This document shows, one piece after another, positions 2,461-51,572 of a stretch of 51,572 bases of DNA. The stretch spans positions 19,276,684 to 19,328,255 of the forward strand of contig NC_057719.1 of NCBI RefSeq assembly GCF_004010195.1. Direction: 5' to 3'. Both the position numbers and the translations under genes were made by a program. Under the pieces are notes generated by a model, which was not told where the DNA came from, made no database searches, and saw only the letters and a list, made by a program, of their open reading frames with translations. Source of the DNA: Chiloscyllium plagiosum (lineage: Eukaryota). Positions within the stretch are counted from its first letter, which is position 1. The number at the start of each line of letters is the position of its first letter.

Positions 2461-2986
2461 TAAACTCTACAACAACAACTTAATACTCGCCAACTCCTTC
2501 TGAAGAGTCCCACTTCATCCCCAAAGCGGACCTGACTTTCAGAAATATTTTACTTTAATGCCAAATTTAGAATGAGATATCTTATAATATACCAAAGAAA
2601 GATTTTAAAATCATTTTTAATATTACATTATATCCATGTTCTCTTATTCTGTGTTCATTGTTTAAGATAGCTCACTTGCAATGTAGGGCAGTTCCAACTT
2701 TGACAATTAGGCCCTTAAAGTTTAGTTAACTTATAATGTCATATTTTCTAGTTTAACAAGTTTCATTTTTGTAACCTCAATCTTGGATAATGCCATTTGT
2801 ACATTTTTGGATGAATATATTTGAACAAACTACAATTGACAAGAAGGTGTTATTAGCATTTTTAACACTGAGACCACAAAACCAGATGAGAAGGATCCCA
2901 GGTTGCTGTGGAAGATGATGGAGAAGATTGCAAGGATCCTCAAATTAAATCATCTCTAGATGCAGAAACTGTGCCAAAGGACTGTT

Positions 2987-3079
2987 GTCGAAAGTGTGGT
3001 GCTGCAAAAGCACAGCAGGTCAGACAGCGTCCAAGGAGCAGGAGAATCGACGTTTTGGACATAAGCCCTTCCTCAGGAA
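2987..3079 (-). mobile_element. Penelope-like element terminal fragment with decayed hammerhead motif
   Basis: Reverse complement of the 34960-35055 terminus. Confidence 0.85.
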
Positions 3080-3318
3080 AAGACTGATGGATGGATAATG
3101 TGAACCCATAACGTGGTAGGGATAAACCAGGGAAATATAGGCCAGTGGTCTAACGTCTGTGGTGCAGGAACTGTTGGAGAAGATTCAGAGGGACAGATTA
3201 ATCCCCACTTGAAGAGACAAGGATTAAACAAGGATGGGATGGGTTTGTCAAGAGATGATCATGCTGAACAGGTTTGATTTGAGTTTTTTGAAAAGGTGAC
3301 TAGATGTGTGGATGAGGG

Positions 3319-5092: not shown

Positions 5093-5969
5093 TAATGAAG
5101 TACAGTGGATACAGTCTACATGGACTTCCGTAAGGCTTTTGGCAAGGTCTGACAAGAAGATGGGATCCAGTGACATTCAGCAAATTGGATTCAAAATTGG
5201 CTTAATGGCAGGTGGTGTAGTGTGATAGCCTTTGTGACTGGAAGTTTGTATTGAATGGGGTACAATAGGGGTTTACTCCAGGTTCCTTGCAGTTTATAGT
5301 GTACATTAAGGATCTGGACATGAATATAGTAGGTTTAATCAGTAAGTGCACCGATGACATGGGAATTGATGGTCTGCTCAACAGAAAGGAGGAAAGCTTT
5401 AGACTACAGAATGGTATATGTGGGCTGACAGAACAAAGGCAAATGGAATTTCATCCTGAACAGTATGAGGTGATGCATTTGGGAGGACTAACAAGACAAG
5501 GGAGTACATGATGAATGGTATGGCCCTAGGAAGTACATGTGATCAGAAAAACTTTCGTGAGCACATCCAAAGATCCTTGAAGGCCACAGGACAGTTCGAT
5601 TAGGTAGTTAAGAAAGCATATGGGATACTGCAATTATTAGTTGAGGTATTGAACATAAGAGCAAGCTTATACAGGATGTTACTTAGGCCACACATGGAGT
5701 AAGGTGTGCAGTTCAGTTCACAGTATAGGAGAGACATGTGATTGCATTAGAGCGGATGTAGAGGAGATTCACCAAGATGTTGCCCAGGGTTGGAATTTTT
5801 CAGCCATGGAGACAGAATAGTTAGCTGTTTTGTTTTTCTAAGAGCAGAGAAGGCAGAAGGGTGAACCTGACAGAGGTATACAAAAATTATGGAGTGAGAT
5901 TGAGAAGGTATTCAGGAAAAGAAAATTCTCTTTAGTAGAGTGATCAATGACAAGGGGACATAGATTTAA

Positions 5970-6100
5970 AGAACAAAAACAGAAATTGCTGGAAAAAGCT
6001 TAGAAGATCTGGCAGCATCTGTAAAGAGAAATCAGAGTTAACATTTTGGGTCAAGTTTCTTTTTCCTTTTCTGATTTACAACATCCGCAGTTCTTTAGGC
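5970..6100. mobile_element. Penelope-like terminal fragments (family 3), inverted plus direct pieces
   Basis: aaaacagaaattgctggaaaaagct...tctggcagcatctg...agagttaac is shared with 22150-22625, 32060-32190 and 44270-44390. Confidence 0.6.
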
Positions 6101-7189
6101 TTTGACATTGTTTTGAAGTGTGTGTTTTGAGGAGATTAAGGAAATGTTTTAATCCTAAGCATCGTGTGAATCTGGAATTCACTGCATGAAAAGATAGTAA
6201 AGGTGGCAGCCATCACAACATTCAGTAAGTGTGTAGGAGTTTGATCTCTGGCATAGAAACAGTGAACTGAATGGCCTATTTTCACATTGTAAAACACAGA
6301 CTTGTGCCTTAGTAAAGGTGTGTTCATACCAACAATTTGAGATATGGGTAAATGAATGAGACCATGGATTAAATGTAAAATCTGCATTTATCCCCAGTGT
6401 CCCATGGCAGACTCTTGCAGAGCCCATGAAGGCAAAAAGATCAAATTACCCTACTCTACATTATCATTTCCTCTTGGCATTTTAATTCAAAGACCATGTT
6501 TCCTCTCAATGATTTTCCCTAGCGTTTGAAGTAAAAGTTTTAGAAAATATGAAATTATCGATGAAACATTTTTAACTGAAGTGTATAATGGAATACCCAT
6601 AGGTGTCATCATCTAGTTAACTGCTAGTTCTGAGACCAGCCCTGTCTTTTCAGTCTAGCTGTTTGGTCATGTAACCAATTACTGCAGACCATGGACAGAT
6701 TAGAGAAGTAGATCAGGTATTGCTGATATTCATCTGGGGGGAGGAAAATAAGGAAGGAAATTTTCTAATCTTGGATCATACAGAGTGGTAAGTAGCTTTG
6801 ATCTATTTTCGATCAAATATTGTATCTTTAATATATTCCTTACATTATATTTATTGGCAAAGAGATGTATTTGGTATAATTTCATGCAACTTATGCACAT
6901 TTGGATAACTCTGGATATGTCAGCAATATTTTTATAATCTCAAACATTCAGGAAAGCAAACATGATTATGAGGTATGAAGCATATAAAACTGTAATTAAA
7001 TATTTACTTCATGGAAGAAAAATAATTTGCGCCAGCAATTTATGAGAAAGCCAAAGTGAATATGAAAATCTCTAGCTCTGTAGACAGGTTCATGTAGTTT
7101 CTTATTAAATTATTAAACTACAGTAAAAGATATCACATGAACAGTTCTGTGAAACTAGAGAACCTGTGACTGTGTTTTCACATCAGGTT

Positions 7190-7406
7190 ATGAGCAATGA
7201 GATGAGTGCAACAGAAAATGCCTACAAGGGAGAGCTGCAAACACCTGCACTCACTAACAATGCGGATGCCAAAGATATCTCTACTGTTCAACAGGACAAG
7301 AGTTTAAATAACGGATTGAAAGCTAAACAAACAAAACATGTCTGTTTCCCATCAGGAGGAAAGATTGTGTCTGGATCAGCAGAACCCTGGAATCCATGGG
7401 AAGCTG
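7190..7406 (+). CDS. PPP1R37-like: PPP1R37 (LRRC68)-like PP1 regulatory subunit, first visible coding exon (exon 7187-7406)
   Basis: Acceptor ttttcacatcag|G at 7186/7187, ATG at 7190, donor G|gtgagt at 7406/7407 (phase 1). Encodes MSNEMSATEN...KHVCFPSGGKIVSGSAEPWNPWEA, matching recalled PPP1R37 KRVTFPSDEDIVSGAVEPKDPWRH. An upstream coding exon is not excluded because the frame is open from the acceptor. Confidence 0.85.
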
Positions 7407-8006
7407 GTGAGTACGGGACATTATTGCTTGAACATGTCCAACTAAAGTTAAACCTCCATATTATAACCCATCAAGAAATGCTAAGAGAATTCTAATCAGA
7501 CATTTTTTGTGAAAATGAAGATTTACATTTAGGTAGCATCTGTCATGACCACTCAGTATCTCAAAGTGCTTTAAAGCCACCAAAACACTTTTGAAGTATA
7601 GTCACTTGTGTAATATAGGAAACTACAACAAATTGCATTTATATACTGTCTTTAACACAGAGAAAGGTACTATAAAAGTGATGTATTTTCAAAAAGTGTT
7701 GGGAATACAGATCCTCCGCTTGGATGAAGATCGAGTTAACTATTGATACTAACTTGAATAATAATTGGCATGTAAAATTTATGCCATGGAAGCATCAGCC
7801 AGTGAATATCTCCAAAAGTGAAAATTTAGCCATCAGCCCTTGACATTCAATTGCACTCCCACCATAAAAGGTATTTGTATTATGATTGATCATAAACTGA
7901 ACTGGATCAGCATTATCAATATGGTGACGACAGGAACAGGTCAGAAGCTAGAAATGCAGAGGCATGTGCTCACCCCCTCTGCCCAAGCACTGTCCAAAAT
8001 CTTCAA

Positions 8007-8141
8007 GGGGAAAGTGAGGACTGCAGATGCTGGAGATCAGAGCTGAAAATGAGCCTGAAGAAGGGCTCATGCCCGGAACGTCGATTCTCCTGCTCCTTGG
8101 ATGCTGCCTGTCCTGCTGCGCTATTCTAGCAACACATTTTC
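8007..8141 (+). mobile_element. Penelope-like short insertion (inverted terminus plus direct hammerhead-containing segment) with 17-bp TSD
   Basis: agcactgtccaaaatct at 7986-8002 and 8142-8158; internal ctgaagaagggctcatgcccggaacgtc. Confidence 0.85.
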
Positions 8142-8554
8142 AGCACTGTCCAAAATCTACAAAGCACAAGTCAGGACCACATTGAAATACTCCTCACTTA
8201 CCTGGATGAGTGGTAACACCAACAACACTCAAGGAGCTTGATACTATCCATGACAAAGCATCCCACTTATCAACACCCTCTACATGAATTTAAACATTAC
8301 TCTTGGCACTATTGATACACAATGGAATTACATAATTGTAAGGTTTGGCTGAAAAAAGCTTTGTTAAAACATCCCTGTTCAATAAAGTTAGCTAAGAATT
8401 TTCTCTGTTATTAAGACTGAATTCAATAACCAGAGTTATAAAGTTATTGAAAATTGATCAAGATCACATCTATATAGAGAAGTGATTGCTTGGCCTCTGG
8501 CTGAGATATTTGTGTAATCGATAGTCACAGGTGAGGTGCCGGAAGACTGTCACA

Positions 8555-9836: not shown

Positions 9837-10137
9837 TTAGATTACTTACAGTGTGGAAATAGGCCCTTCGGCCCAACAAGTCCACACTAATCCTCCAAAA
9901 AACAACTCACCCAGACCCATTCCCCTACATTTACTCCTTCACCTAACACTATGGGCAATTTAGCATGGCCAATTCACCTAACCTGCACATTTTTGGACTG
10001 TGGGAGGAAACTGGAGCAAATTCACGCAGACACAGGGAGAATGTGCAAACTACACACAGACCGTTGCCTGAGGTGGGAATTGAACCCGGGTCTCAGGTGC
10101 TGTGAGGCAGCAGTGCCACTGTGCCACCGTGCCACCC
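9837..10137 (-). mobile_element. HE1 SINE
   Basis: tRNA-like head (rc of gggtggcacggtggcacagtgg), V-domain core and HER1-type tail. Confidence 0.92.
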
Positions 10138-22147: not shown

Positions 22148-22626
22148 AAGAACTGCAGATGCTGGAAATCAGAAACAAAACAGAAATTACTGGGAAAATA
22201 ATTGCTGGGAAGCTTTATCTAACACCTCATTTTCTGTTTGGGAACTCAACAGCCTTCTGGACTTAAAATTGAATTCATAAATTGTGGGGCTTGAGACGCC
22301 TTCTCCCCTTTATTTAGCATAACCTCCTCATTCTATGCCTTGTCATCACTTGGGCTGCTACCACACACAACCCATTGACAGCTACTAACAGACCCCATTA
22401 ACAGCTACTCATTCCCCCAGACTGACTTTTACCCACTCCTTTGTCCCACTGTGTTTCTCTCTGTTCGGGCTTTGTTTCCACCTATCGTTTACTCTCCCCA
22501 CCCCATGTTCTGCATAAATACAAGCATTTTCTGAAGAAGGGTTACTGCACCCAAAATGATAACTCTAATTTATTTCCACAGATGCTGCCAGACCTGCACA
22601 GTTTCTGAGCAACTTATGTTTTTGAT
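22148..22626 (+). mobile_element. Penelope-like element (family 3): inverted terminus plus direct 3' region with decayed hammerhead at 22531-22560
   Basis: 22150-22210 is the reverse complement of the family terminus; a fragment resembling the GIY-YIG C-terminus (cacctcattttctgtttgggaactcaacagcc) precedes ctgaagaagggttactgcacccaaaa. Confidence 0.65.
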
Positions 22627-22672: not shown

Positions 22673-25600
22673 TAGAACATAGAAAAATACAGCGCAGACC
22701 AGGCCCTTCAGCCCTCGAAATTGCGCCGACCTGTGAACTAATACAAGCTCATCCCCGTACACTATCCCATCATTATCCATATGCTTCTACAAGGACTGTT
22801 TAAATGCCCCTAATGTGGCTGTGTTAAGATTAGATCACTTACAGTGTGGAAACAGGCCCTTCGGCCCAACAAGGAAATTGCGCCGACCTGTGAACTAATA
22901 CAAGCTCATCCCCGTACACTATCCCATCATTATCCATGTGCTTCTACAAGGACTGTTTAAATGCCCTGAATGTGGCTGTGTTAACTACATTGGCAGGCAG
23001 AACATTCCACACCTTTATCACTCTCTGAGTAAAGAGCCTGCCTCTGACATCTGTCTTAAATCTGTCACCCTCAATTTGCAGCAATGCCCCCTCATCATCC
23101 TTAGAAAGAGACTCTCACTGTCCACCCCATCTAATCCTCTGATCATCTTGTATGTCTCTATTAAATCCCCCTTCTTCTATCCAATGAGAACAGACCCATG
23201 TCACTCAGCCTTTCCTCATAAGACCTTCCCTCCAGAGGAGAAAATGAGATCTGCAGATGCTGGAGATCAGAGCTGAAAATGTGTTGCTGGAAAAGCGCAG
23301 CAGGTCAGGCAGCATCCAGGGAACAGGAGAATCGACGTTTTGGGCATAAGCCCTTCTTCAGGACCCAGTAACATCCTGGTAAATCTCCTCTGCACCTTTT
23401 CCAATGCTTCCACATCCTTCCTGTAATGGGGTAACCAGAATTGTACACAATATTCCAAGTGAGGCCGCATTTTGTACAGTTGCAGCATGACATCATGGCT
23501 CTGGAACTCAATCCCTCTACCGATAAAACCTAACACACCGTATGCCTTCTTTAACAGCACTGTCAACCTGGGTGGCAACTTTCAGGAATCTGTGTACATG
23601 GACACCAAGGTCCGTCTGCTCATTCACACTATCAAGAGTCTTTCCATTGACCCAGTACTCTGCCTTCCTGTTATTCTTCCCAAAGTGAATCACCTCACAT
23701 TTATCTGCATTGAACTCCATTTGACACCTCACAGCCCAATTCTGCAGTTTATCCAAGTCCCCCTGCAATCTGCAACATTCTTCCACACTGTCCACTAATC
23801 CACCAACTTTAGTGTCATCTGCAAACTTACTAACCCATCCACCCTTTCCTGCGTCCAAGTCATTTATAAAAATGACAAACAGCAGTGGACCCAAAACCGA
23901 TCCTTGTGGCACACCACTAGTAACTAGACTCCAGGCTGAATATTTTCCATCAACCACCACTCGCTGCCTTCTTACAGAAAGCCAGTTTCTAATCCAAACT
24001 GTTAAATCACCCTTAATCCCATGCCTCTGCATTTTCTCCAAATGCCTACCATGTGGAACCTTATCAAAGTCCATGTACACCATGTTAACTGCCCTACCCT
24101 CATCCACATGCTTGGTCACCTTATCAAAAAACTCAATGAGGTTTGTGAGACACGACCTGCCCTTGATGAAACCATGTTAACTCTCTCCAATCAAATTGTT
24201 GCTTGCTAGATGATTATAAATCCAATCTCTTATTATCCTTTCCAAAACTTTTCCTACAACAGATGTAAGGCTCACTGGTCTATAATTACCTGCGTCATCT
24301 CTACTACCCTTCTTGAACAAGGGCACAACATTTGCAATCCTCCAGTCCTCTGGTACAAAACCTGAAAATAATGATGACTCAAAAATCAAGGCCAAAGGCT
24401 CCACCATCTCCTCCCTAGCTTCCCAGAGAATCCTTGGATAAATCCTATCCAACCAAGGAACTTATCTACTTCCACATCTTCTAGAATTGCTAACACCTGT
24501 TCCTTACTAACATCAATCCTTTCAAGTCAAATTGCCTGTATCTCATTCTTCTCCTCTGCAATATTCTCCTTTTCCTGAGTGAAAACAGATGAGAAATATT
24601 TGTTTAGCCCCTCTCTGATCTCCACAGGGTCCACACACAACTTCCCACTACTGTCTTTGACTGGCCCTATTCCTACTCTCGTCATCCTTTTATTTCTCAC
24701 ATATCTATTGAAAGCTTTAGGGTTCTCCTTTATTCTATCTGCTAAAGACTGCTCATGTCCCCTTCTTGCTCTTCTTAACTGTCTCTTTAAATTCTTCCTA
24801 GCTAATCTGTAATTCTCCTTCACCTCATCTGAACCATCTCGTCTCAACTTCACATAAGCCCCCCTCTTCTGCTTAACAAGAGATACAATTTCTTTAGTAA
24901 ACCAATGTTCCCTTACCTTATCACTTACTCCCTGCCTGACAGGGACATGCCTATCAAGGACACGCAATATCTGTTCCTTAAATCAGTTCCACATTTCAAT
25001 TGTCCCCATGCCCTGCATTTTGCTACCTCATTCTATGCCTCTGAAGTCTTGCCTAATCGCATTATAATTGCCCTTCCCCCATCTGTAACTCTAGACTTGT
25101 GGCATGTACCTATCTCTTTCATCGCTAAAGTAAATGTAACCGAATTGTGGTCACTCTCTCCAAAGTGCTCACCTACCAATAAATCAAACACCTGGCTTGG
25201 TTCATTACCATGTACCAGATCCAGTGTGGCCTCCCCTCTTGTCGGCCCTTCAACATACTGTGTCAGGAAACCCTCCTGCACACATTGGACAAAAGGTGCT
25301 AGAGTTATATAATTTCTAATCAATTTTGGGGAAGTTAAAGACTCGCATAATGATGACCCTGTTCCTTTCACTCCTGCCCAGAATCGTTTTGCCAATCCTC
25401 TCCTCCACATGCCTGGAACTTTGTGGAGGCCTATTAAAAAAACTCCTAGCGGTGTGACCTCTCCTCCTGTTTCTAACTTCAGCCCATACCACCTCAGTAG
25501 ACAAGCCCTCATCAAACGTTCTTTCAGCCACCATTATGCAGTCCTTGACTAACAAAGCCACACCTTCCCCCTTTTACCACCTTCCCTGATCTTAATGAAA

Positions 25601-26487
25601 GGTCTAAACCCTGAAACCTGCACATCCATTCCTGACCCTGCTCCATCCATGTCTCCGAAATGGCCACAATATCGAAGTCCCAGGTATTTATCCATGCTGC
25701 AAGCTCACTTACCTTATCCCGCATACTCCTGGCATTGAAGTAGATACACTTCAAACCAGCTTGCTGTCTGCCAGCAAACTCCTGTCACAGTGCAATCCTG
25801 TCCCTGTCCTCCCTACTCACATCCTTCTGTGCACTGGGACTACACCACAGGTTCCAATCCCCCTGCTGAGCTATTTTAAATCTGTCTGAATAGCACTAGC
25901 AAATTTCCCATCCAGTATCCCTCTTGTTCAAGTGAAGACTGGCCTGTTTGTAGAGGTCACACCTTCCCCAGAATGAGCCCCAATTGTCCATATACCTGAA
26001 ACCCTCCCTCCTGCACCATCCCTGCAGCCACGTGTTCAGCTGACATCGCTCCCTGTTCCTCGCCTCACTATCACATGGCACGGGTAACAAACCGGAGATA
26101 ACAACTCTGTTTGTTCTAGCTCTTAGCTTCCACCCTAGCTCCCTGAAATCCTGCCTTACATCCCTATCCCTCTTTCTACCAATGTCGTTGGTACCTATGT
26201 GGACCACGACTTGGGGCTGGTCACCGTCTCACTTCAGGATCCCAAAAACACGATCCGAGACATCACAGACCATGGCACCTGGAAGGCAACACGCCAACCA
26301 TGAATTTCTTTCATTCTATCTGACCCTCTAACTATTGAGTCCCCAGTGACTAATACTCTCCTCTTTCCCTTCTGTGCAACAGAGACAGATTCTGTGCCAG
26401 AAACCTGCACCCCAATGCATGCCCATGGAAACTCGTCCCCCCAACAGTATCCAAAACTGTATACTTGTTTGTCAGGGGAATGACAAA
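22673..26487 (-). mobile_element. Near full-length CR1 LINE: SGNH-esterase ORF1, APE endonuclease and RT, all disrupted
   Basis: ORF1 VHIGTNDIG...GLLPVP...LHLN (25896-26207); EN CIYFNARS...ISETW and SDHN; RT GVPQGSVLGP and FADD; candidate TSD atgttgca at 22663-22670 and 26490-26497. Confidence 0.95.
23237..23362 (-). mobile_element. Penelope-like terminal fragment inserted in CR1
   Basis: Reverse complement of the 34966-35055 terminus, plus the extreme end ctgcagatgctggagatcagagc. Confidence 0.88.
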
Positions 26488-27054: not shown

Positions 27055-27152
27055 CTGGCAGTTTTACAGTGGATGAGATCATTGCATCCTACAAATTAAG
27101 CTGTGAGAAACTTGGTGTACAGCCTATTCACAAATTGCTGACACAACTGCAG
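27055..27152 (+). CDS. PPP1R37-like: PPP1R37-like, second visible coding exon (98 nt)
   Basis: Acceptor attctgtgttgcag|CT, donor CAG|gtaaac. G+CT joins in phase with the previous exon to give AGSFTVDEIIASYKLSCEKLGVQPIHKLLTQLQ, an ungapped match to recalled PPP1R37 AQNVTVDEVIGAYKQACQKLNCRQIPKLLRQLQ. Not in the ORF track. Confidence 0.88.
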
Positions 27153-27183: not shown

Positions 27184-27442
27184 CTAGATTAAAGTGGTGC
27201 TGGAAAAGCACAGCAGGCCAGGCAGCATGTGAGGAGCAGGAAACTCGACTTTTCGGGCAAAAGCCCTTCATCAGGAATAGAGACAGGGAACATCCAGGTT
27301 GGAGAGATAAATGAGAGAGGGTGGGGGTGGGGAGAAAGTACCATAGAAGTAGCATACGAAGAAGTTTTCCTCCTATCTCTATAAGAATCTTAGTGAGTCT
27401 CTCTCTCACAGAAACCCCCAGGTCGTCTCCTCTGTTTTTACC
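27184..27442 (-). mobile_element. Penelope-like insertion with 14-bp TSD
   Basis: atactaatctatgt at 27170-27183 and 27443-27456; hammerhead motif on the minus strand at 27247-27274. Confidence 0.85.
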
Positions 27443-31883: not shown

Positions 31884-34194
31884 ATTTCTTTCCAATTTGA
31901 TATAAACACCTTCCTGTAATATGAAGTGCTTTTCCTCCAAAGGCATAAATAAATAAAACTATCAATAAGCTAAGATCTAAAGAATAAAAACTAAATGCGA
32001 AGAAATAAGGACTGAATTTTTATGTTAAAACATGATCTTACTTAATCCAAGATAATAAAACAATAGAACTGTGGATTTTGGAGGTCTGAAACAAAATCAA
32101 AAATGGACATTACTGGAGAAATTCAGCCTGTCTGGCAGCATCTGTGGAAAGAAAGCAGAGCTGACATTTCAAGTCTGGTGACTGTTCATCTTTATGCCTG
32201 TCACTTCCAAAATATTCTTTGTTCTATTGACCGCATGAATGACATGTGTTGGAAGAGCTCAGCACTTTTGATCTTAACCACCTTCCACAGATTTACCTCC
32301 GAACCAATGGAGTATTGGTGCCGAGACATGTTGGATCATTTACTCCTTGACTTCTCAGGCTTGAATCCACAAAATGGTCACACACAGCTTCAGAAAATAT
32401 AAGATTTAATCCCCCATAATGTGCAATAGGTGGGTCTTTGTTCATGATGTTTTCTATGCCAAGCAGGGAATAATGGTTTCTATAAGTTTTAAGTTTTCAA
32501 GATTTCACCAGTGTGTACCCCTTTCCTTTTCTTAGCATTCAGCTTAAGTACTGACCCATTTTTGAGGACACATTCAAGGTGAATGTAAGGCATCCTCCTA
32601 TAATTAAAAGAAAGTAATTCCGGCAACAATCACTTGAAATTTAGATAGACTTTTAGTGCTCCAACCCGTTGACTTCTGACCCAGGTGTAGGCCAAACTGA
32701 TGCTTACTGCAAGAAAAATCAAATAAAAGAATTAAGATTAATTTGGCAGCATGAAAATGCATAGTATTCTAACCAATTAAAACATATTTTCATGCCATGA
32801 TGCACAGAACTGTGTTTTGCTTATCAATGCCAGCAGAAAAATAACATTTTGCTCTGAAATATTAATTTCGGGACATATCTTTTGAAGCTCCTGGCAGGAA
32901 AAAAGGTCACTTCTCAAACTATCTGATTGGATGGCCAGGCTATCATGCACCTATTACCAACAAAAACTGGTCCAGGCAGTTTTATTTATTCGCTTTACAA
33001 AACCTGATAAACTGTGGGTAGATTTCAAAGAACATTCAAGCCAATAGCAGTTTTCTTGCTCCACTGTCTGTCAATTCATTGCTCAGTGTAACAAAAAATG
33101 TTCACACTGTATTAATATTAACTTAGAAGTGCTAATGAGGGAACTAGGCAATAACAGGCTAAGCACAAGTAGTTAAAGAGTGGGATCTTTGGGGAGATAA
33201 AAAATAGTAGATAATGTAATAAGTGAAATGAGAAACAGTAAAGCTGCTGGGAGAGACTGTATTTCAAATGAAATTATACAGATTGCAGATTGAAGAGAAG
33301 TATTAACACCTTGTTTAATGAGATAATCAGGGTTGAAGTAGTCACTGTGGAATTCAATATAAGTTGCTTCCTTGTTTGGTTTATTCCACCATGGTTTTCT
33401 TCATCCTTGCAGCTTGACTGTTAAGTTGTCTTTTCCTTGATTTTTTTTTTGAGTTGACAGTTAATAATGATGCTGAGTAAATGTTGATTTCATCATGAGT
33501 TACCTGGAATAACTAAATAACATTAAAATCAGAAACATAAGACTTTGTTATCCACATTTCCTGTGGAAGAAAAATAAATCCATATCATTATGCTTAACAC
33601 AAATCTGATACACATGGTATTCACCTTGAGCTCATAAAGACTTCACTTGGCTAAGACAAAACAGAATCTTGCAGAACACAAAAAAGATTTTACCTTTTGA
33701 GTGCTGTAGCATAGTTATCCAGAGAAGTCTTGCTAATTTAGATGTGATTTATGACATGTTTCCCATTGCTTCATCAGAATGGTAAATTAGAGTCATAGAG
33801 TCATAGAGATGTGCAGTACGGAAACAGACCCTTTGGTCTTCGTAGGATATGTGGAACAATCCATCTTCCGCAACTACACTGGCCCCACCCCCCACCTTTT
33901 CCTCTGCTACATCGATGACTGTATCGGCGCCGCCTCGTGCTCCCATGAGGAGGTTGAACAGATCATCCACTTCACCAACACCTTCCACCCCGACCTCAAA
34001 TTCACCTGGACAGTCTCAGATTCCTCCCTCCCCTTCCTCGACCTATCTATTTCTACCTCAGGCGACCGAATCAACACGGACACCTACTACAAACCGACCG
34101 ACTCCCACAGCTACCTGGACTACACCTCCTCCCACCCTGACCCCTGTAAAAACGCCATCCCATTCTCCCAACTCCTTCGACTCCGCCGCATCTG

Positions 34195-34907
34195 NNNNNN
34201 NNNNNNNNNNNNNNNNNNNNNNNNNNNNNNNNNNNNNNNNNNNNNNNNNNNNNNNNNNNNNNNNNNNNNNNNNNNNNNNNNNNNNNNNNNNNNNNNNNNN
34301 NNNNNNNNNNNNNNNNNNNNNNNNNNNNNNNNNNNNNNNNNNNNNNNNNNNNNNNNNNNNNNNNNNNNNNNNNNNNNNNNNNNNNNNNNNNNNNNNNNNN
34401 NNNNNNNNNNNNNNNNNNNNNNNNNNNNNNNNNNNNNNNNNNNNNNNNNNNNNNNNNNNNNNNNNNNNNNNNNNNNNNNNNNNNNNNNNNNNNNNNNNNN
34501 NNNNNNNNNNNNNNNNNNNNNNNNNNNNNNNNNNNNNNNNNNNNNNNNNNNNNNNNNNNNNNNNNNNNNNNNNNNNNNNNNNNNNNNNNNNNNNNNNNNN
34601 NNNNNNNNNNNNNNNNNNNNNNNNNNNNNNNNNNNNNNNNNNNNNNNNNNNNNNNNNNNNNNNNNNNNNNNNNNNNNNNNNNNNNNNNNNNNNNNNNNNN
34701 NNNNNNNNNNNNNNNNNNNNNNNNNNNNNNNNNNNNNNNNNNNNNNNNNNNNNNNNNNNNNNNNNNNNNNNNNNNNNNNNNNNNNNNNNNNNNNNNNNNN
34801 NNNNNNNNNNNNNNNNNNNNNNNNNNNNNNNNNNNNNNNNNNNNNNNNNNNNNNNNNNNNNNNNNNNNNNNNNNNNNNNNNNNNNNNNNNNNNNNNNNNN
34901 NNNNNNN
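34195..34907. other. Assembly gap (713 N)
   Basis: Run of n. Confidence 1.
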
Positions 34908-34966
34908 CCCCCAAGTCCCTCCTCCCTATCTTTTATCTTAGCCTGCTGGACCAACTTTCCTCATTC

Positions 34967-34994
34967 CTGAAGAAGGGCTAATGCCCGAAACGTC
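34967..34994 (+). ncRNA. Minimal hammerhead ribozyme motif (Penelope-associated), core intact
   Basis: CTGAAGA-A-GGGC(TAAT)GCCC-GAAA-CGTC: catalytic core, 4-bp stem II, and palindromic ACGT in place of helix III; predicted cleavage after GUC at 34994. Stem I is weak. Confidence 0.7.
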
Positions 34995-36439
34995 GATTCT
35001 CCTGTTCCCTAGATGCTGCCTGACCTGCTGCGCTTTTCCAGCAACACATTTCCATCTTCAACTAGTCCATGCCGACCATGCAATCTAGTCTCACCTGCTA
35101 GCACCTGACCCATATTCCTCCAAACTCTTCCTATTCATATACCCATCCAGATACCTTTTAAATGTTGCAATTGTACCAGCCTCCACCACTTCCTCTGCAG
35201 CTCATTCCATAGACATACCACCTTCTGCATGAAAAAGTTGCCCCTTAGGTGTCTTTTATGTCTTTCCCCTCTCACCCTAAACCTATGCCCTCTAGTTCTG
35301 GACTCCCCCACCCCAGGGAAAATTCTTTATCTATTTATCCTTTCCATGCCCCTCATGATTTTATAAACCTCTATAAGGTCACCCCTCAGCCACCGATGCT
35401 CCAGGGAAAACAGCTTTAGCCTATTCATCCTCTCCCTATAGCCCAAATTTTGCACAATCTGATGAAAGAAAAGGCTACTCAATTGGGAATAAGTAAAGCA
35501 ATAGCTGCTTCAATGTCACATCAGATTGCACATATTCTCAACCTGTCTTCCACTCTTCTCCACACCATGATCCTTGCATAACACAAGCAACTTCAGCCAT
35601 TCACACCTGATACGGACGTAGGGCTGAAGATCCAGCGTGGAAACACTTGACCTGAGTATACATCATCACTGTATCAAGATAAAAGGTTTAAGGAATGAGT
35701 TCATCACAGCCCCACATTGTTCCAGATTGGCAGAGTTAGTTTGGCTTTTTAGGAGTCTAGGGCGGGCAATCATTTGTATACTTAATTCAACACAAATCTA
35801 TTAGCCAAAATCTGACAAATTATTTTGTAGTATTAATATCGAGACAGTGAATGTCCAAATATGATCTATCACTGTCTTCTCTTCCTGTTCCCTGCATGTT
35901 CACCACTGGAGTTCTTTAAGAATCTATGATTATTTTCCCCCTTTCTATCTGTTCATCTGTAGTAATATTGTAAGCCTCTTCATATTTGTGATGATAACAA
36001 GCTCTACTTCTGTAGCCTTTTCTCATCCTTTGTCTCCCACTTTCCCTCATGGCCTAAAGCTTATTTCAATTTCAGACTTGGTTGAATCATGACTTCCTTC
36101 AGTAGAGTATTTAAAAGACAAAAAGTGTCCTCTGCCCCATACACTCATCACCCTTGCTATCAGTTCCATTCCTCTCTCCGGTCAATGTTTCTGTTTAAAT
36201 GAGATTGCAAATTTGGCATAGTGTTTATACATCAGTTTGATTTCAGATCTTACCTCTACATTACACTGTTTGCATTCAGTCAGCAATGTTTGTGCTGTCC
36301 TTGTTGGCTTCCCATTTTCCCCTTTCATTCACTCCACTTAATTCAGAGCTCTGCTGCATTTATTCTGCACTGTACTGAGTCTTGTTATCTTTCATTTTTT
36401 TTATCTTCTCTTTCACTCATACAGAGAGCATTAAGATAG

Positions 36440-37189: not shown

Positions 37190-38172
37190 GTTTTATTTGA
37201 TTTATTGTTGTCCCATATACCAAGACACAGTGAAAAGTGTTGATTTGCATTCCATATATAGCAGATCGGGGTAGCAGAACAGAGTGTATAATACAGTGCT
37301 ACAGCCACAGTGAAAGTGCAGAGAGGGAGAGATCAAAAATATTTGACAGGTCTATTCAAAAATCTGATAAGTCTGATAACAACGAGGAAGAAGCTGTTCT
37401 TGAATCTGTTCATACATGTATTCAAACTTATATATCTTATGCTTGATGGAAGAGAGTGGAATAGACTATAACTGGGATGGGAGGGGTCATTTATTATGTT
37501 GGTTGCTTTCCCGATGCAGTGGGAAGTATAAATGGAGTCAATGGATAGAGGGTTGGTTTGTGTGATGGACTAGGCTGTGTTCACAACTCTCTGTAGTTTC
37601 TTGCAGTCTTGGGAAGAGCATTTGCCATACCACACTGTAATGCAATCAGATAGAATGATTTCTATGGTGCATCTATAAAAATTATTCAGAATCTTTGTGG
37701 ACTTGCTGAATTTCCTTAGCCTCCTGAGGATTAGAGGCATTGCTGTGCTTTCTTGAACTGTCACATTGACGTGGGTAGAACAGGACAGATGTTTGGTAAT
37801 TAACACTCCTAGGAACTTGACATTCTCGACCATCTCCATCTTGGCTCCATTGATGCAGACAGGGGCATGCTCTCCACTGCATTTCCTGGAGCCTATGATC
37901 AGCTCCTTTGTTTTGCTGACATTGATGGAGAGATTGTTGACTTTACACCATGCCGCTAAGCACTCAATCTGTTTCCTGTACTCTGTCTCATCATTGTCTG
38001 AGGTTTGACCTACAATAGCGGTGTCATCAACAAACCTGTAAATGGAGTTGGGGCAGAATTCGGCCACACAGGCCAAATCTATAAGGAGTACAGTAGGGAG
38101 TTGAGTACGCAGCCTTGTGGGGCGCCTGTGTTGAGGATTATCGTGGAGGAGGTGTTGCCACCTGTTCTTCCT
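37190..38172 (-). mobile_element. Rex1/Babar-clade LINE fragment (RT C-terminus and 3' UTR)
   Basis: ORF 37570-38208: FVDDTAIVG...NNLSINVSKTKELII...KFLGV...LRRLRKF...FYRCTIE..LSDCITVWYG. Confidence 0.88.
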
Positions 38173-38829
38173 AATGTTTACTGTAAGTTTGATGGAAGTT
38201 GTTTTCATCTAGGGGAAACCAAACATTAGAGGCTGTGAATATAATATATTCATTAATAATCATTTAGAGGAAGGATTTTCACTCAGAGTGGCAAGAATGT
38301 AGAACTCACTACCACAAAGAATAGCTGAGAAGACTAGTGTAGATCCACTTAAGAGGAAACTAGTAAGAAAAAAGACAGCAGAAGTCATAGAACATTATAT
38401 TGATAGGGTGAGATAAAGATGTATATGGAAAGAAGCTTGCCAACATCATACAGACGAAATTGCCCGTTTTTCGCTATAAAAGTTATGCAAAAAGGAGGAT
38501 GCAAAGTGCTAATTGTGCAGCAATAACTCTTTGCAACTGTTAAGATGATGTGACAGATTAGGAGAATATATTGCTAATTTAAAGGGGCAGTGTGCTCATA
38601 ACAAATGCTGAGCAGTTTCTGTATTCACTTCCTCACCTCTCATGAAGACATTGAATTCTTTCTGTGATTTGGCTCCAAGGACTTTTGATGCTGTCTAATC
38701 CTTTACTGATGTAACCATTATTTATTTTGAATTCCTGAACAATGGATATTGATAAGTATCTTGAGCACAGAGCAATGTAAATGTACTTGAGTCACACCCA
38801 CTGTCCCCACAGTAGCTTGGATTGGATGT

Positions 38830-39167: not shown

Positions 39168-39361
39168 CAATGTAATTGGATTGCGATCAGTAAAATCCCA
39201 GCCAATCCTCTTCTCCTTAATTCAGATATTTAAAGTAATTTTTAGTTCTCCTACTGTGCTATGACTGAGATTAGCTAACTGGCTATCATGTAGGTTTATT
39301 GTTGTAACACTGTCCCTGGACTGAAACATGAACTTCTGAGGATAGGCTGAGAATGAAAGTA

Positions 39362-39490
39362 AGGAGAAAGTGAGGACTGCAGATGCTGGAGATCAGAGTC
39401 AAGCGTGGGGTGCTGGAAAAGCACAGCAGGTCAGGCAGCATCCAAGGAGCAGGAGAATCAACCTTTCGGGAAAGAACCCTTCATCAGGAA
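39362..39490 (-). mobile_element. Penelope-like terminal fragment
   Basis: gagaaagtgaggactgcagatgctgg...cccttcatcaggaa; flanking direct repeat aggctgagaa at 39344-39353 and 39493-39502. Confidence 0.85.
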
Positions 39491-39683
39491 CGAGGCTGAG
39501 AACACTTTCTGTTGAGTCACTGGGGGGAATAAGAAGTTTTTTTCATTTTGTTTCTGGATAAGCAGCGCAGAGGCTTAAATTACAACAAATCATTTCATTT
39601 CAGTGCTTCTGTTTTCATTAACTATGAAGCAAATAATACAAAGTGCTTCTTTTTTCCCTTCTCTGTACCCCAATCCTGATCCC

Positions 39684-43495: not shown

Positions 43496-44665
43496 TTGTC
43501 AGTTACAGGTAAAATTTTGGCATATAACATCATCAGTTAACGCTCTAATCCCCTTGTTACCACCCTCCCCCCCCTCCCCAACACATGCACTCACACACAT
43601 GCACACACACAAGCACACACACACACACTTAGGCTGACAGACAAGTAGGGTAAAATAAGCAGAGGGTAATACAGGGATAAGAAATCCCATGAGACCTCCT
43701 GATGAGAATTTCTCCAAAAATCTCACCACAACTCACACTTAGTCACAAAATGTAGGATTTAGCCCTTTGTATCTCAGATGGGACTTCCGCTGTTTGAAAG
43801 TTGATTGTCAACTTCTTGGAAAGATTACCCTATTGAACACCTCTCCCTCAGCTATACATCCCTACTGCCAGTGTCACTCCAACATCAGGGCAGCGAATGC
43901 AGTTTTACCTTGAATCCTGTGCCAAGGATTAGGGCAGGGCAGTCACCAATAACAGCAGCATAAGCAATAACAGCTGACTTCTCCTCAGCCATATACTGCC
44001 TGACAGAGAAGTGGAAGATGGTTTACCTGAATAGAGGAATCACCACCCCTCAAAACAGTATCTACAGGCAGAGGAATCGCTGTCTCAATCTTAGATCTTT
44101 ACATCAGGTTCCTGCTGACACCTGAAGCTTTCTCGAACAATGCCTCCTTCTGAGTGTAGCTGTTGAATGGACATTGATAATGGTCTACAAGGTAGCTGCC
44201 CAAATTCCAATTGGTCATATTTTCAGCAATTTGAATGACGCAAATATAATTATTCAGATATTATGCTTTCTGAAGTAACCGGACCCAAAACATTAACTTT
44301 GTTTTCTCTCCACAGGTACCGCTGAGCTTTTCCAGCAATTTCTGTTTTAGTTTCTGATGTCCAGCATCCGTAGTGCCTTCGGTTTTTGTTAAGTATTTAA
44401 ATATTCTTATGTTATGTGGTCCAATAATGTTTCAAACTATTTGTAAGTTGATTAAGATAAAGGGGCAAATAGCGATGGGTCATTGATGGTGATGAGCTGG
44501 TTCAGGACTAATGGACTCTATTGAAGCTATATCTTTCTTATTTTTCCTTATTAAATTATTCAAAATGGCACAGTTTTGTGGTGACAAATGAAAGCTTTTC
44601 ACTGTATTTTACTGTATTCTTACTGAAAGTACGTATGACAATAAAATCAAAAGCAAATCAATCAA

Positions 44666-49795: not shown

Positions 49796-50039
49796 AATTC
49801 CACAACTACGAGCATTCACATCAATACCTACATAAATGTAGCATTATTTAGTTATATAGCTCCACAATATATTGCTTTTTATTCATGCAAGACAGAACCT
49901 TTTTTTGTTATTGTTTCATGGGATGTGGGCACCACTGGCAAGATCAGTATTTATTGTCCATTCCTAATTGCCCATGAACTGAATTACAATATCATTTCAG
50001 AGTGAGTGAAGAGTCAACCATTTTAAAATGGCTGTACCG

Positions 50040-50400
50040 AAATGTGTGGTGCTGGAAAAGCACAGCCAGTCAGGCAGCATACGAGGAGCAGGAGAGTCGA
50101 CATTTCGAGCATGAGCTCTTTACCAGGAATGGGTATGATGGCCCAAGAGGGCTGAGAGATAATTGGGGTGGAGGTTGAGGGAGGGTAGCTGGGAATGCGA
50201 TAGGTAGTTGAAGGTGGGGGTGATGGTGATGGAACCAAGGCAGAAGATGAGTCCAACCATATGGGATCAATGTCGATTTCACCAGTTTTCTCATCTTATC
50301 CCAGATCCACCCTCTTGAATTGTCGTACCTGTCCTGTCTTACTCCCCACCTATCTGCTCCACCCTCCTTTCCGACATAACACCATCACTCCCCACCCTCA
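50040..50400 (-). mobile_element. Penelope-like fragments (minus terminus 50040-50235, then a probable opposite-strand piece)
   Basis: gtgtggtgctggaaaagcacagc...gtcgacatttcgagcatgagctctttaccaggaat. Confidence 0.8.
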
Positions 50401-51358
50401 TGTACAATAGTTTCCACGTTCAGGTTACAAAAAGCCTCAAATAGATATGTAGAGGGCTATATTTGAAAGGGCATGGTGAAGTGAAGAGCTTAATTTTGTA
50501 TTGTACAGTGACAAAAATTAAGGTACTTGAAATGTACAACATATAAGGAAGTGGCTGCCCAAGTATTAGACAGCAAATAGGTGCTCTTTGTTTGAAAGGA
50601 ATGATCAGGTGATATTTTATTATGGTTGTAGGAAATAAATGGAAGCTGGGATAGCTTAAGGAATCGGAAATAGCAATCATAGGTTTGGAATTAATATTCG
50701 AATAATCCACAAACTATTTATCACAGTACCGCTACATAATATAAAAGATCAGACAGACAAGTCTTGATTTTGTTGGGAGCCGGTTCTAATTTAGTCAGTC
50801 TAAGATTTGTGAGTGAACATATTGGTTAAATTTTATAGACGACTTCATTTACACAATTATTAACTCCTGATGCAAACTCACAACAGTCTGGGAATGACAT
50901 CTGTGAAATTTAAAGTTGGGGGGCAATTAAAAGAATAACAAGGATGTGCACAAGAATGTTTTGCAAGACCTTTAAATGCTTCTCAAGCCATCAGCAGACT
51001 TTGCAGAAGCTGAAAGAATTGGAGATTATGAAGTGATAGGCTAGGATGAAAAGAAAGCTCTGGGTGCAGGCAGGACAAGAGACATGACAAATTAACAAGA
51101 CGTTTCTTCTGAGCCGCTCTACAGAATAATCCCATAAGTTAGTATTACAGCACGCATGCAACAGATGCGATGAAAAATTTTTCGCTCCTCTGAATTTATA
51201 TTTTCTTACTATCTTAACTATTTCTGCAGTTATTTCACTGTCCTGACTTCAATTATATTACTGCGGACCTTTTCTATTAAGCAATATATCTTGACACTTA
51301 CATAAATTTGATTCTCACAAGACCAACCCTTTGACCCTGGCTTTTCTATAGATGATGT

Positions 51359-51572
51359 AGCTGAAAATGTGTTGCTCGAACAGCGCAGCAGGTCAGGCAG
51401 CATCCAGGGAACAGGAGAATCGACGTTTCGAGCATAAGCCCTTCTTCAGGAATGAGGAAAGTGTGTCCAGCAGGCTAAGATAAAAGGTAGGGAGGAGGGA
51501 CTTGGGGGAGGGGCATTGGAAATGCGATAGGTGGAAAGAGGTCAAGGTGAGGGTGATAGGTCAGACTGGGGT
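51359..51572 (-). mobile_element. Penelope-like element 3' end, runs off the window
   Basis: Near-perfect reverse complement of 34908-35050. Confidence 0.92.
51422..51449 (-). ncRNA. Minimal hammerhead ribozyme motif, core intact
   Basis: The minus strand reads CTGAAGA-A-GGGC(TTAT)GCTC-GAAA-CGTC; stem II is kept through a G-U pair. Confidence 0.65.

Follow-up and report, generated by a model that had tools for sequence, protein, structure and literature searches.

Lunse et al. reportedly observed dimer cleavage of the minimal hammerhead ribozymes of Penelope-like elements (PLEs). Minimal hammerheads (min-HHRs) were described in the pseudo-LTRs (pLTRs) of metazoan PLEs by Cervera and De la Pena in 2014 (PMC4209133). 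Their consensus includes an extra base, a G10.1-C11.1 pair and a palindrome. Monomers do not cleave, and dimers cleave weakly (PMC4209133); the dimer model is summarised in a review (PMC6765202). In the Anolis Poseidon element PAc (Frangieh et al. 2024, PMC11167929), the motif cleaved only when protein was present, and RNA-seq reads did not end at the site. A recent preprint reports hammerhead tandem repeats in one chondrichthyan, as well as Xenopus dimers of which 8 of 9 did not cleave (bioRxiv 10.64898/2026.07.22.740005). Table S1 and Fig. S3 of PMC4209133 contain no cartilaginous fish. Our literature search found no shark PLE hammerhead and no start site in helix I, both of which may be contained in subscription papers, Repbase/Dfam or supplements.

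Here we describe a hammerhead motif in 51,572 nucleotides of Chiloscyllium plagiosum DNA (the window). We are confident that it is an intact minimal hammerhead in the 3' pLTR of a 5'-truncated PLE, likely of the Neptune clade, and likely an inert intronic passenger. The hammerhead type has been known since 2014; the copy adds another shark locus to a known retroelement ribozyme, and little more.

A complete minimal hammerhead motif

The initial annotation placed an intact minimal hammerhead at 34960..35005. Sequence, a covariance model and a chance control all identify a complete minimal type I motif at 34963-34998 (+), running from the 5' arm of helix I to its 3' arm. The 5' arm (AUUC, 34963-34966, +) leads into the core C3-A9 (CUGAAGA, 34967-34973, +, with C3 at 34967), an extra A between positions 9 and 10.1 (34974, +) and helix II (34975-34986, +). 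The latter consists of GGGC (34975-34978), the loop TAAT and GCCC (34983-34986), with G34975-C34986 as the G10.1-C11.1 pair. The next stretch (34987-34994, +) comprises GAAA (34987-34990), a palindromic CG that replaces helix III (34991-34992), U16.1 (34993) and C17 (34994); the palindrome A-CG-U at 34990-34993 thus stands in for helix III. Cleavage is predicted 3' of C17 (34994), the position that had been proposed. The 3' arm of helix I (GAUU, 34995-34998, +) forms the pairs C34966-G34995, U34965-A34996 and A34963-U34998 around a U.U mismatch at 34997, which leaves 2 contiguous pairs. These are the pairs of the weak stem I described in the initial annotation.

The core pattern matches the window twice, at the focal motif and at 51422-51449, where 100 shuffles gave an expectation of 0.00. 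The covariance-model search that had been suggested was carried out with a model trained only on 13 non-shark relatives. At 45.9 bits (E about 9e-11 by a rough calibration), the focal motif outscored everything else in the window, and seven sister copies scored 43.7 to 17.2 bits in the same search. Rfam returned 0 hits for the motif at gathering score over the whole window, and no hammerhead family at E<=10 over 34908-35200. A canonical type I hammerhead, as in the Rfam families or the domesticated intronic HH9/HH10, with its full helix III, 6-bp helix I with loop contacts and conservation of the individual locus, was considered and rejected: the motif has no Rfam match and no helix III, and belongs to a high-copy repeat.

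Helix II has pair probabilities of 0.93-1.0 in all 6 contexts folded. The pair probability of helix I is at most 0.09, as computed by folding programs that do not model hammerhead cores. The ACGU self-duplex of the palindrome contributes only -1.7 kcal/mol, and the motif region folds no more stably than shuffled sequence (z -0.45). A T>A change at 34997, which restores the helix I pair, occurs in other copies, at about 7% of the depth in X1, 18% in X20 and 0.1% in X12.

The motif resembles the published min-HHRs in its CUGANGA core with one additional base, in its GAAA, its dinucleotide palindrome and its UH, and in its location 3' of the ORF (PMC4209133); helix I is short as well, but is predicted to pair weakly. 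The core, extra base, G10.1-C11.1 pair and palindrome are all present in the pLTR of a PLE insertion, which bears out its identification as a PLE minimal hammerhead. For the Acropora digitifera Neptune motif, Fig. S3 of PMC4209133 prints the core CUGACGAA, helix II GGGC/GCUC and CG-U-C; its core is identical to that of the focal motif and its helix II nearly so. The focal helix I, with two pairs, a mismatch and one further pair, is close to the lower limit of the lengths published (PMC4209133).

The motif belongs to a 5'-truncated Penelope-like insertion

The repeat joint, the reverse transcriptase (RT) fragment and the motif together delimit a 5'-truncated, dead PLE at 33839-35058 (+) that splits an older host repeat. 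The left arm of this repeat (33792-33838) and its right arm (35059-35448) were recognised from other copies in the window; we take it to be of the LINE 3'-end type, with a CR1/L2-like label. It is interrupted exactly at 33838|35059, and the arms join without duplication or loss. Four of the five other copies in the window run unbroken through this point as GGTC|CAACT, and the fifth is a GTCT AACT variant. The segment 33839-35058 is therefore a single insertion without target duplication. As had been proposed, the motif lies downstream of the PLE RT across the assembly gap and in sense to it: both are on the + strand of one insertion.

The RT fragment (33839-34194, +), identified by protein match, contains the end of the palm with YIDD and the thumb, and the N-terminal RT motifs are missing. 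It is 84% identical to Chiloscyllium punctatum proteins and 83% identical to P0001 over 119 aa, and was not recognised by Pfam. Because the fragment starts inside the palm, the focal copy cannot be autonomous. The gap that follows (34195-34907, 713 N) is where the linker and GIY-YIG endonuclease are expected. Compared with Neptune (PMC8557442), the focal copy lacks the 5' two thirds, and its endonuclease region would fall within the gap.

According to copy alignments, a pyrimidine-rich 3' UTR or pLTR segment precedes the motif (34908-34962, +), and the 3' part of the pLTR extends from the motif to the 3' end of the element (34999-35058, +). The segment 34908-35060 is 92.8% identical to 51508-51356. 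An optional tail of about 35 nt is absent from the focal 3' end; the copies at 23237-23363 and 39361-39492 have it, and an inverted tail lies at 8005-8053. Viral contigs and metagenome contigs each gave 0 matches to an exact 32-nt pattern taken from the flank.

From the RT-thumb motif to C3, the focal copy measures 775 nt. The same distance spans 699-955 nt among 16 invertebrate relatives; in P0006 it is about 1134 nt, with 762 nt for the coding part alone. Either the gap is thus longer than its 713 N, or the focal copy carries an internal deletion. A second motif could sit in the gap, whose end is 59 nt upstream of C3. Short-read assembly gaps often fall on repeats, and a partial tandem with a second pLTR would give a retrozyme-like dimer able to cut in cis. 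Head-to-tail joints of the type 35051->34963 do occur at other places in three species, where 9, 4 and 8 contigs have them. Such joints are few against tens of thousands of matching pieces, however, and both gap edges carry ordinary element sequence. The gap is moreover already too short for the linker, endonuclease and UTR, and we consider a hidden tandem very unlikely.

The animal non-LTR retrozymes (PMC7229834; also reported in one chondrichthyan, bioRxiv 10.64898/2026.07.22.740005) are short units related to PLEs and likewise carry a hammerhead of type I, and the rare head-to-tail 89-nt joints of the shark family are a further parallel. Assignment of the focal locus to this class was rejected, as its sequenced part contains a single motif joined to RT coding sequence and no tandem noncoding units. 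In all three species, a few contigs show a second type of joint, 34997/34998->34963/34964, in which a 35-nt motif jumps directly to its own first base. These near-minimal tandem hammerheads are candidates for natural dimers.

The motif is conserved among related elements

We collected 80 related loci from metagenomes and dropped 42 in which the endonuclease end was not reached or less than 500 nt lay downstream. Among the 38 loci kept, which include near-duplicates, the covariance model finds the motif in sense within 500 nt downstream of the endonuclease in 29, at a median distance of 109 nt. The proposal that the family carries such a motif is supported. The motif follows the endonuclease in 19 of the 27 loci outside the training set, none of the 38 loci has an antisense motif downstream of the endonuclease, and a strict descriptor finds a perfect motif in 14 of 38. 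Several loci bear the very A. digitifera Neptune motif printed in PMC4209133.

In 16 aligned motifs, C3-A9 is invariant except for N7, and the whole core is invariant but for N7, H17 and one lesion at 15.2. The extra base and the G10.1-C11.1 pair are present in 16 of 16. Helix I, examined with a descriptor that does not require it, covaries: changes on both sides occur in 4 of 4 pairs, with 85.9% paired. Helix II also covaries, but the descriptor demands helix II and the palindrome, which makes the covariation of these two circular in part. Relatedness among the motifs is ignored by the shuffle control for covariation.

The closest proteins have an RT followed by a Cys linker and, at the C-terminal end, a GIY-YIG domain. 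The linker matches Cx2-5CxxC in 7 of the 9 closest proteins checked, and in 9 of 12 the RT is followed by a Pfam GIY-YIG match, in most cases under the curated cutoff. The zebra-shark protein P0006 reads past the endonuclease into LMKGLRPKR, which is similar to the translated motif. A Cx2-5CxxC linker with a C-terminal GIY-YIG is characteristic of the Neptune EN+ PLEs (Craig et al. 2021, PMC8557442); the linker is common to Neptune and Nematis (PMC8557442). The sister copies also show Neptune-like traits, namely 5' truncation, an optional 30-40-bp tail and an inverted copy (PMC8557442). Judged from domain order, linker and motif identity, the element is likely a member of the Neptune clade.

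Repeated pLTRs in four relatives end 81-101 nt after C3 (L004 3536-3663, L006 3971-4561, L009 3976-4176, L051 1898-2218). The shark copies without tail end 84-91 nt after C3, close to these invertebrate ends.

Inserted copies decay in the core as in the flanks

The window contains seven sister copies. The copy at 51355-51572 (-), found by core pattern and covariance model, has the only other intact core, with one G.U in helix II. The remaining six, delimited by copy alignment, all carry core lesions, so that 2 of the 8 same-family copies are intact with the focal one included. Two short copies have G12>A: one with a tail at 23237-23363 (-), which starts 1-2 nt before C3, and one at 2985-3081 (-), which starts 2-4 nt before C3. 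A13>G is found in the short copy at 8005-8146 (+), which has an inverted tail ahead of it and flanks with a direct duplication of about 16 bp. The palindrome is broken in a short tailed copy at 39361-39492 (-), with a flanking duplication of about 10 bp and a start 4-5 nt before C3, and in a copy of another subfamily at 27185-27345 (-), whose upstream limit is approximate. An older copy at 50030-50224 (-) has three core changes. The 8005-8146 copy compresses the inverted-pLTR layout of PLEs into about 140 bp.

Against the column majority, the core shows 8 differences in 104 alignment cells (7.7%) and the flank 33 in 392 (8.4%); the Fisher test gives P=1.0, with little power on 8 window copies. 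A core that decays like its flanks fits neutral decay, on few copies. The initial annotation had proposed to compare core and flanking conservation across copies. By sequence comparison, the expected conservation exists between element families, while the inserted copies in the window show no excess, the outcome that the annotation had named as telling against its reading. That the focal motif is intact is most likely because mutation has not reached it yet.

Among the 40 of 182 read-level variants listed, variation spares the functional positions. The four variable motif positions in this listing are N7, two in loop II and the helix I mismatch, all of them free (hypergeometric P about 6e-4, with classes set post hoc). 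This placement points to selection in the parent families.

One reading of these data is that the shark motif has lost catalysis altogether and is kept as a pLTR promoter or protein-binding signal. Helix I has 3-5 contiguous pairs in 20 of 22 strict motifs and only 2 in the focal copy, and the block at 35012-35030, downstream of the motif, varies no more than the core does (8/152 differences). In addition, no copy in the window begins at the cut site, and insertion in vitro did not need cleavage in Anolis (PMC11167929). On the other hand, shark and invertebrate motifs alike retain the palindrome and every catalytic base, the variants avoid paired and core positions, and a 2-bp helix I is found among published PLE motifs, in Drosophila and Culex (PMC4209133). 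We regard a complete loss of catalysis as unlikely; it agrees with our preferred explanation, an intact hammerhead carried as a passenger, in holding the focal copy inert.

The 8-copy counts leave out relics of a second family near 6020, 22530, 32110 and 44270. These decayed remains of a diverged hammerhead module (22524-22613, +; 5986-6050, -; 32110-32190, -; 44270-44340, +) have helix II GGGT/ACCC and a helix I that opens with T-A pairs, changes that are compensatory relative to the focal family.

Copy start points and a candidate transcription start

Half of the window copies (4 of 8) begin 1-5 nt before C3, at the equivalents of 34962-34966, and three of these four are flanked by candidate duplications 5 to 16 bp long. 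No copy among the eight begins at the cut site, 34995. Because the whole motif is retained and starts at the cut site are absent, uncleaved RNA appears to be the template, in line with Anolis. PAc shares with the shark family a minimal pLTR motif, 3' ends at a fixed distance and the insertion of uncleaved RNA; it belongs to another clade, its ORF begins in helix II, and protein-assisted activity has been measured for it (PMC11167929).

The initiator consensus in promoters is YYANWYY. TCATTCC at 34961-34967 fits it, and its A (34963) is the base with which helix I opens. PLE promoters with initiators have been located in pLTRs (PMC2377424 and PMC3846280). It is possible, if somewhat unlikely, that the hammerhead forms the very 5' end of the shark element transcript. 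The pLTR promoter would then start at A34963, and the modules of 85-130 nt would be accounted for as run-off cDNAs. Such modules would be primed at the tail of the 5' pLTR, and copying would run on to the capped end of RNA that had not been cleaved. The role of cleavage would be to take off a capped leader of 32 nt and so switch off translation or copying, and not to make the template. If this were true, the ribozyme would be tied to cap removal and the solo modules would be explained.

Besides the start points of the window copies, this reading draws on head-to-tail joints and RNA loose ends that land on 34963 in three species. Loose RNA ends before 34963 are found in 163 reads and are heterogeneous. 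A start at A34963 is weakened by three observations: divergence among subfamilies upstream of 34963 exaggerates the step seen in the reads, the copies start at least 46 nt before C3 in the four invertebrate relatives that have two of them, and YYANWYY is frequent, matching 1.3% of positions. The copy boundary at 34963 could alternatively arise from an endonuclease cut at ATT, the Anolis endonuclease motif (PMC11167929).

The focal copy is probably inert in an intron of a PPP1R37-like gene

Two coding exons of a PPP1R37-like gene were located by splice-site scan and protein match against Stegostoma PPP1R37. The exon at 7130-7406 (+) covers residues 37-128 of P0121 at 82% identity and has a GT donor at 7407; its acceptor is approximate. 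The last coding exon 5' of the motif, at 27055-27152 (+), has AG...GT boundaries and covers residues 128-161 at 94%. A third match lies at 5529-5600. A Pfam search of 146 of 356 open frames, combined with a motif scan, found none of the host exons; these came from the splice-site scan. Among the best matches listed, none that is significant places residues from 162 on in the window. The next coding exon is thus outside the window; provided that the gene extends past it, the motif sits 7.8 kb inside an intron. The host gene named in the initial annotation and the sense orientation of the motif both hold, as the exons and the motif are on the + strand. The focal copy is likely transcribed in sense within the PPP1R37-like pre-mRNA.

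Among contig pieces of three species, 98,312, 71,790 and 67,050 match 34908-35200 at 85% likeness, with the host-repeat part included; for the other two species, none of the pieces listed spans the whole stretch. A total of 3020 RNA reads match in both orientations, 81 of them at 99% or more alike. They show no pile-up of RNA ends at the cut site or elsewhere, a weak test because they represent a small polyA single-cell sample (about 2% of one run). In the same fraction of that run, RNA depth across the locus-specific junction is 0 to 2.3 per bin.

Cleavage of the PPP1R37-like pre-mRNA at the focal copy, with the help of copies in trans or of the PLE protein, could alter splicing or output. 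In its favour, the core is intact and in sense to the host gene, family RNA is found in both orientations, and protein-assisted cleavage is known for the Anolis PLE (PMC11167929). Same-family copies in sense to the gene are also just 2 of 8 in the window, but this bias is not significant (P=0.29). Against meaningful cutting, the dimer helix would be the 4-bp duplex of the palindrome, helix I is marginal, the RNA ends do not accumulate and the core decays at the rate of its flanks. The nearest same-family copy in sense is 26.9 kb from the focal motif. We therefore find meaningful cleavage of the pre-mRNA very improbable. It would imply latent cut sites in thousands of shark introns, and the evidence points otherwise.

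The significance that a sense ribozyme in a host intron seemed to imply does not hold up: no partner is visible, helix I is not predicted to form, and the core decays like the flank. The focal copy is probably inert on these grounds, together with the broken cores of the sister copies. Its top score in the window, and its place as one of just 2 intact cores among 8 copies, tell against this. In the parent element, by analogy with known PLEs, the RNA would be cut 3' of C17 only if a second copy completes helix III through the ACGU palindrome or the element protein assists folding of the motif. Reverse transcription probably stopped inside the RT gene, so that a truncated copy was written into the older repeat and would since have been carried passively, in sense, in the PPP1R37-like pre-mRNA. 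Alone and with a two-pair helix I, this copy is predicted to cut only seldom, if ever. The shark family may nevertheless be useful for studying the in vivo role of PLE hammerheads, because its copies are very many and their boundaries sharp.

A pyrimidine tract ending in TTAG (34925-34941, +) lies just 5' of the motif; it resembles a splice acceptor and is in sense to the host gene; other subfamilies have comparable AGs upstream of the motif. In RNA run X21, CT replaces AG at 34940-41 in about 1/4 of the reads, against less than 1% of DNA depth, probably due to one expressed variant copy. The antisense module at 27185-27345 (-) comes to within about 33 nt of the splice donor of the 27055-27152 exon.

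Other repeats in the window

A long LINE remnant at 23500-26300 (-) contains an RT match (24180-24461) and a match of SGNH/GDSL esterase type (25899-26228, E 2.4e-10), presumably as in a CR1-type ORF1. Another RT fragment is located at 37570-38208 (-; RVT_1, E 3.3e-6). A SINE-like repeat of about 300 bp occurs in about nine copies that are 72-87% alike, at 9837, 12431, 19037, 29022, 31565, 38848, 39683, 42215 and 42584.
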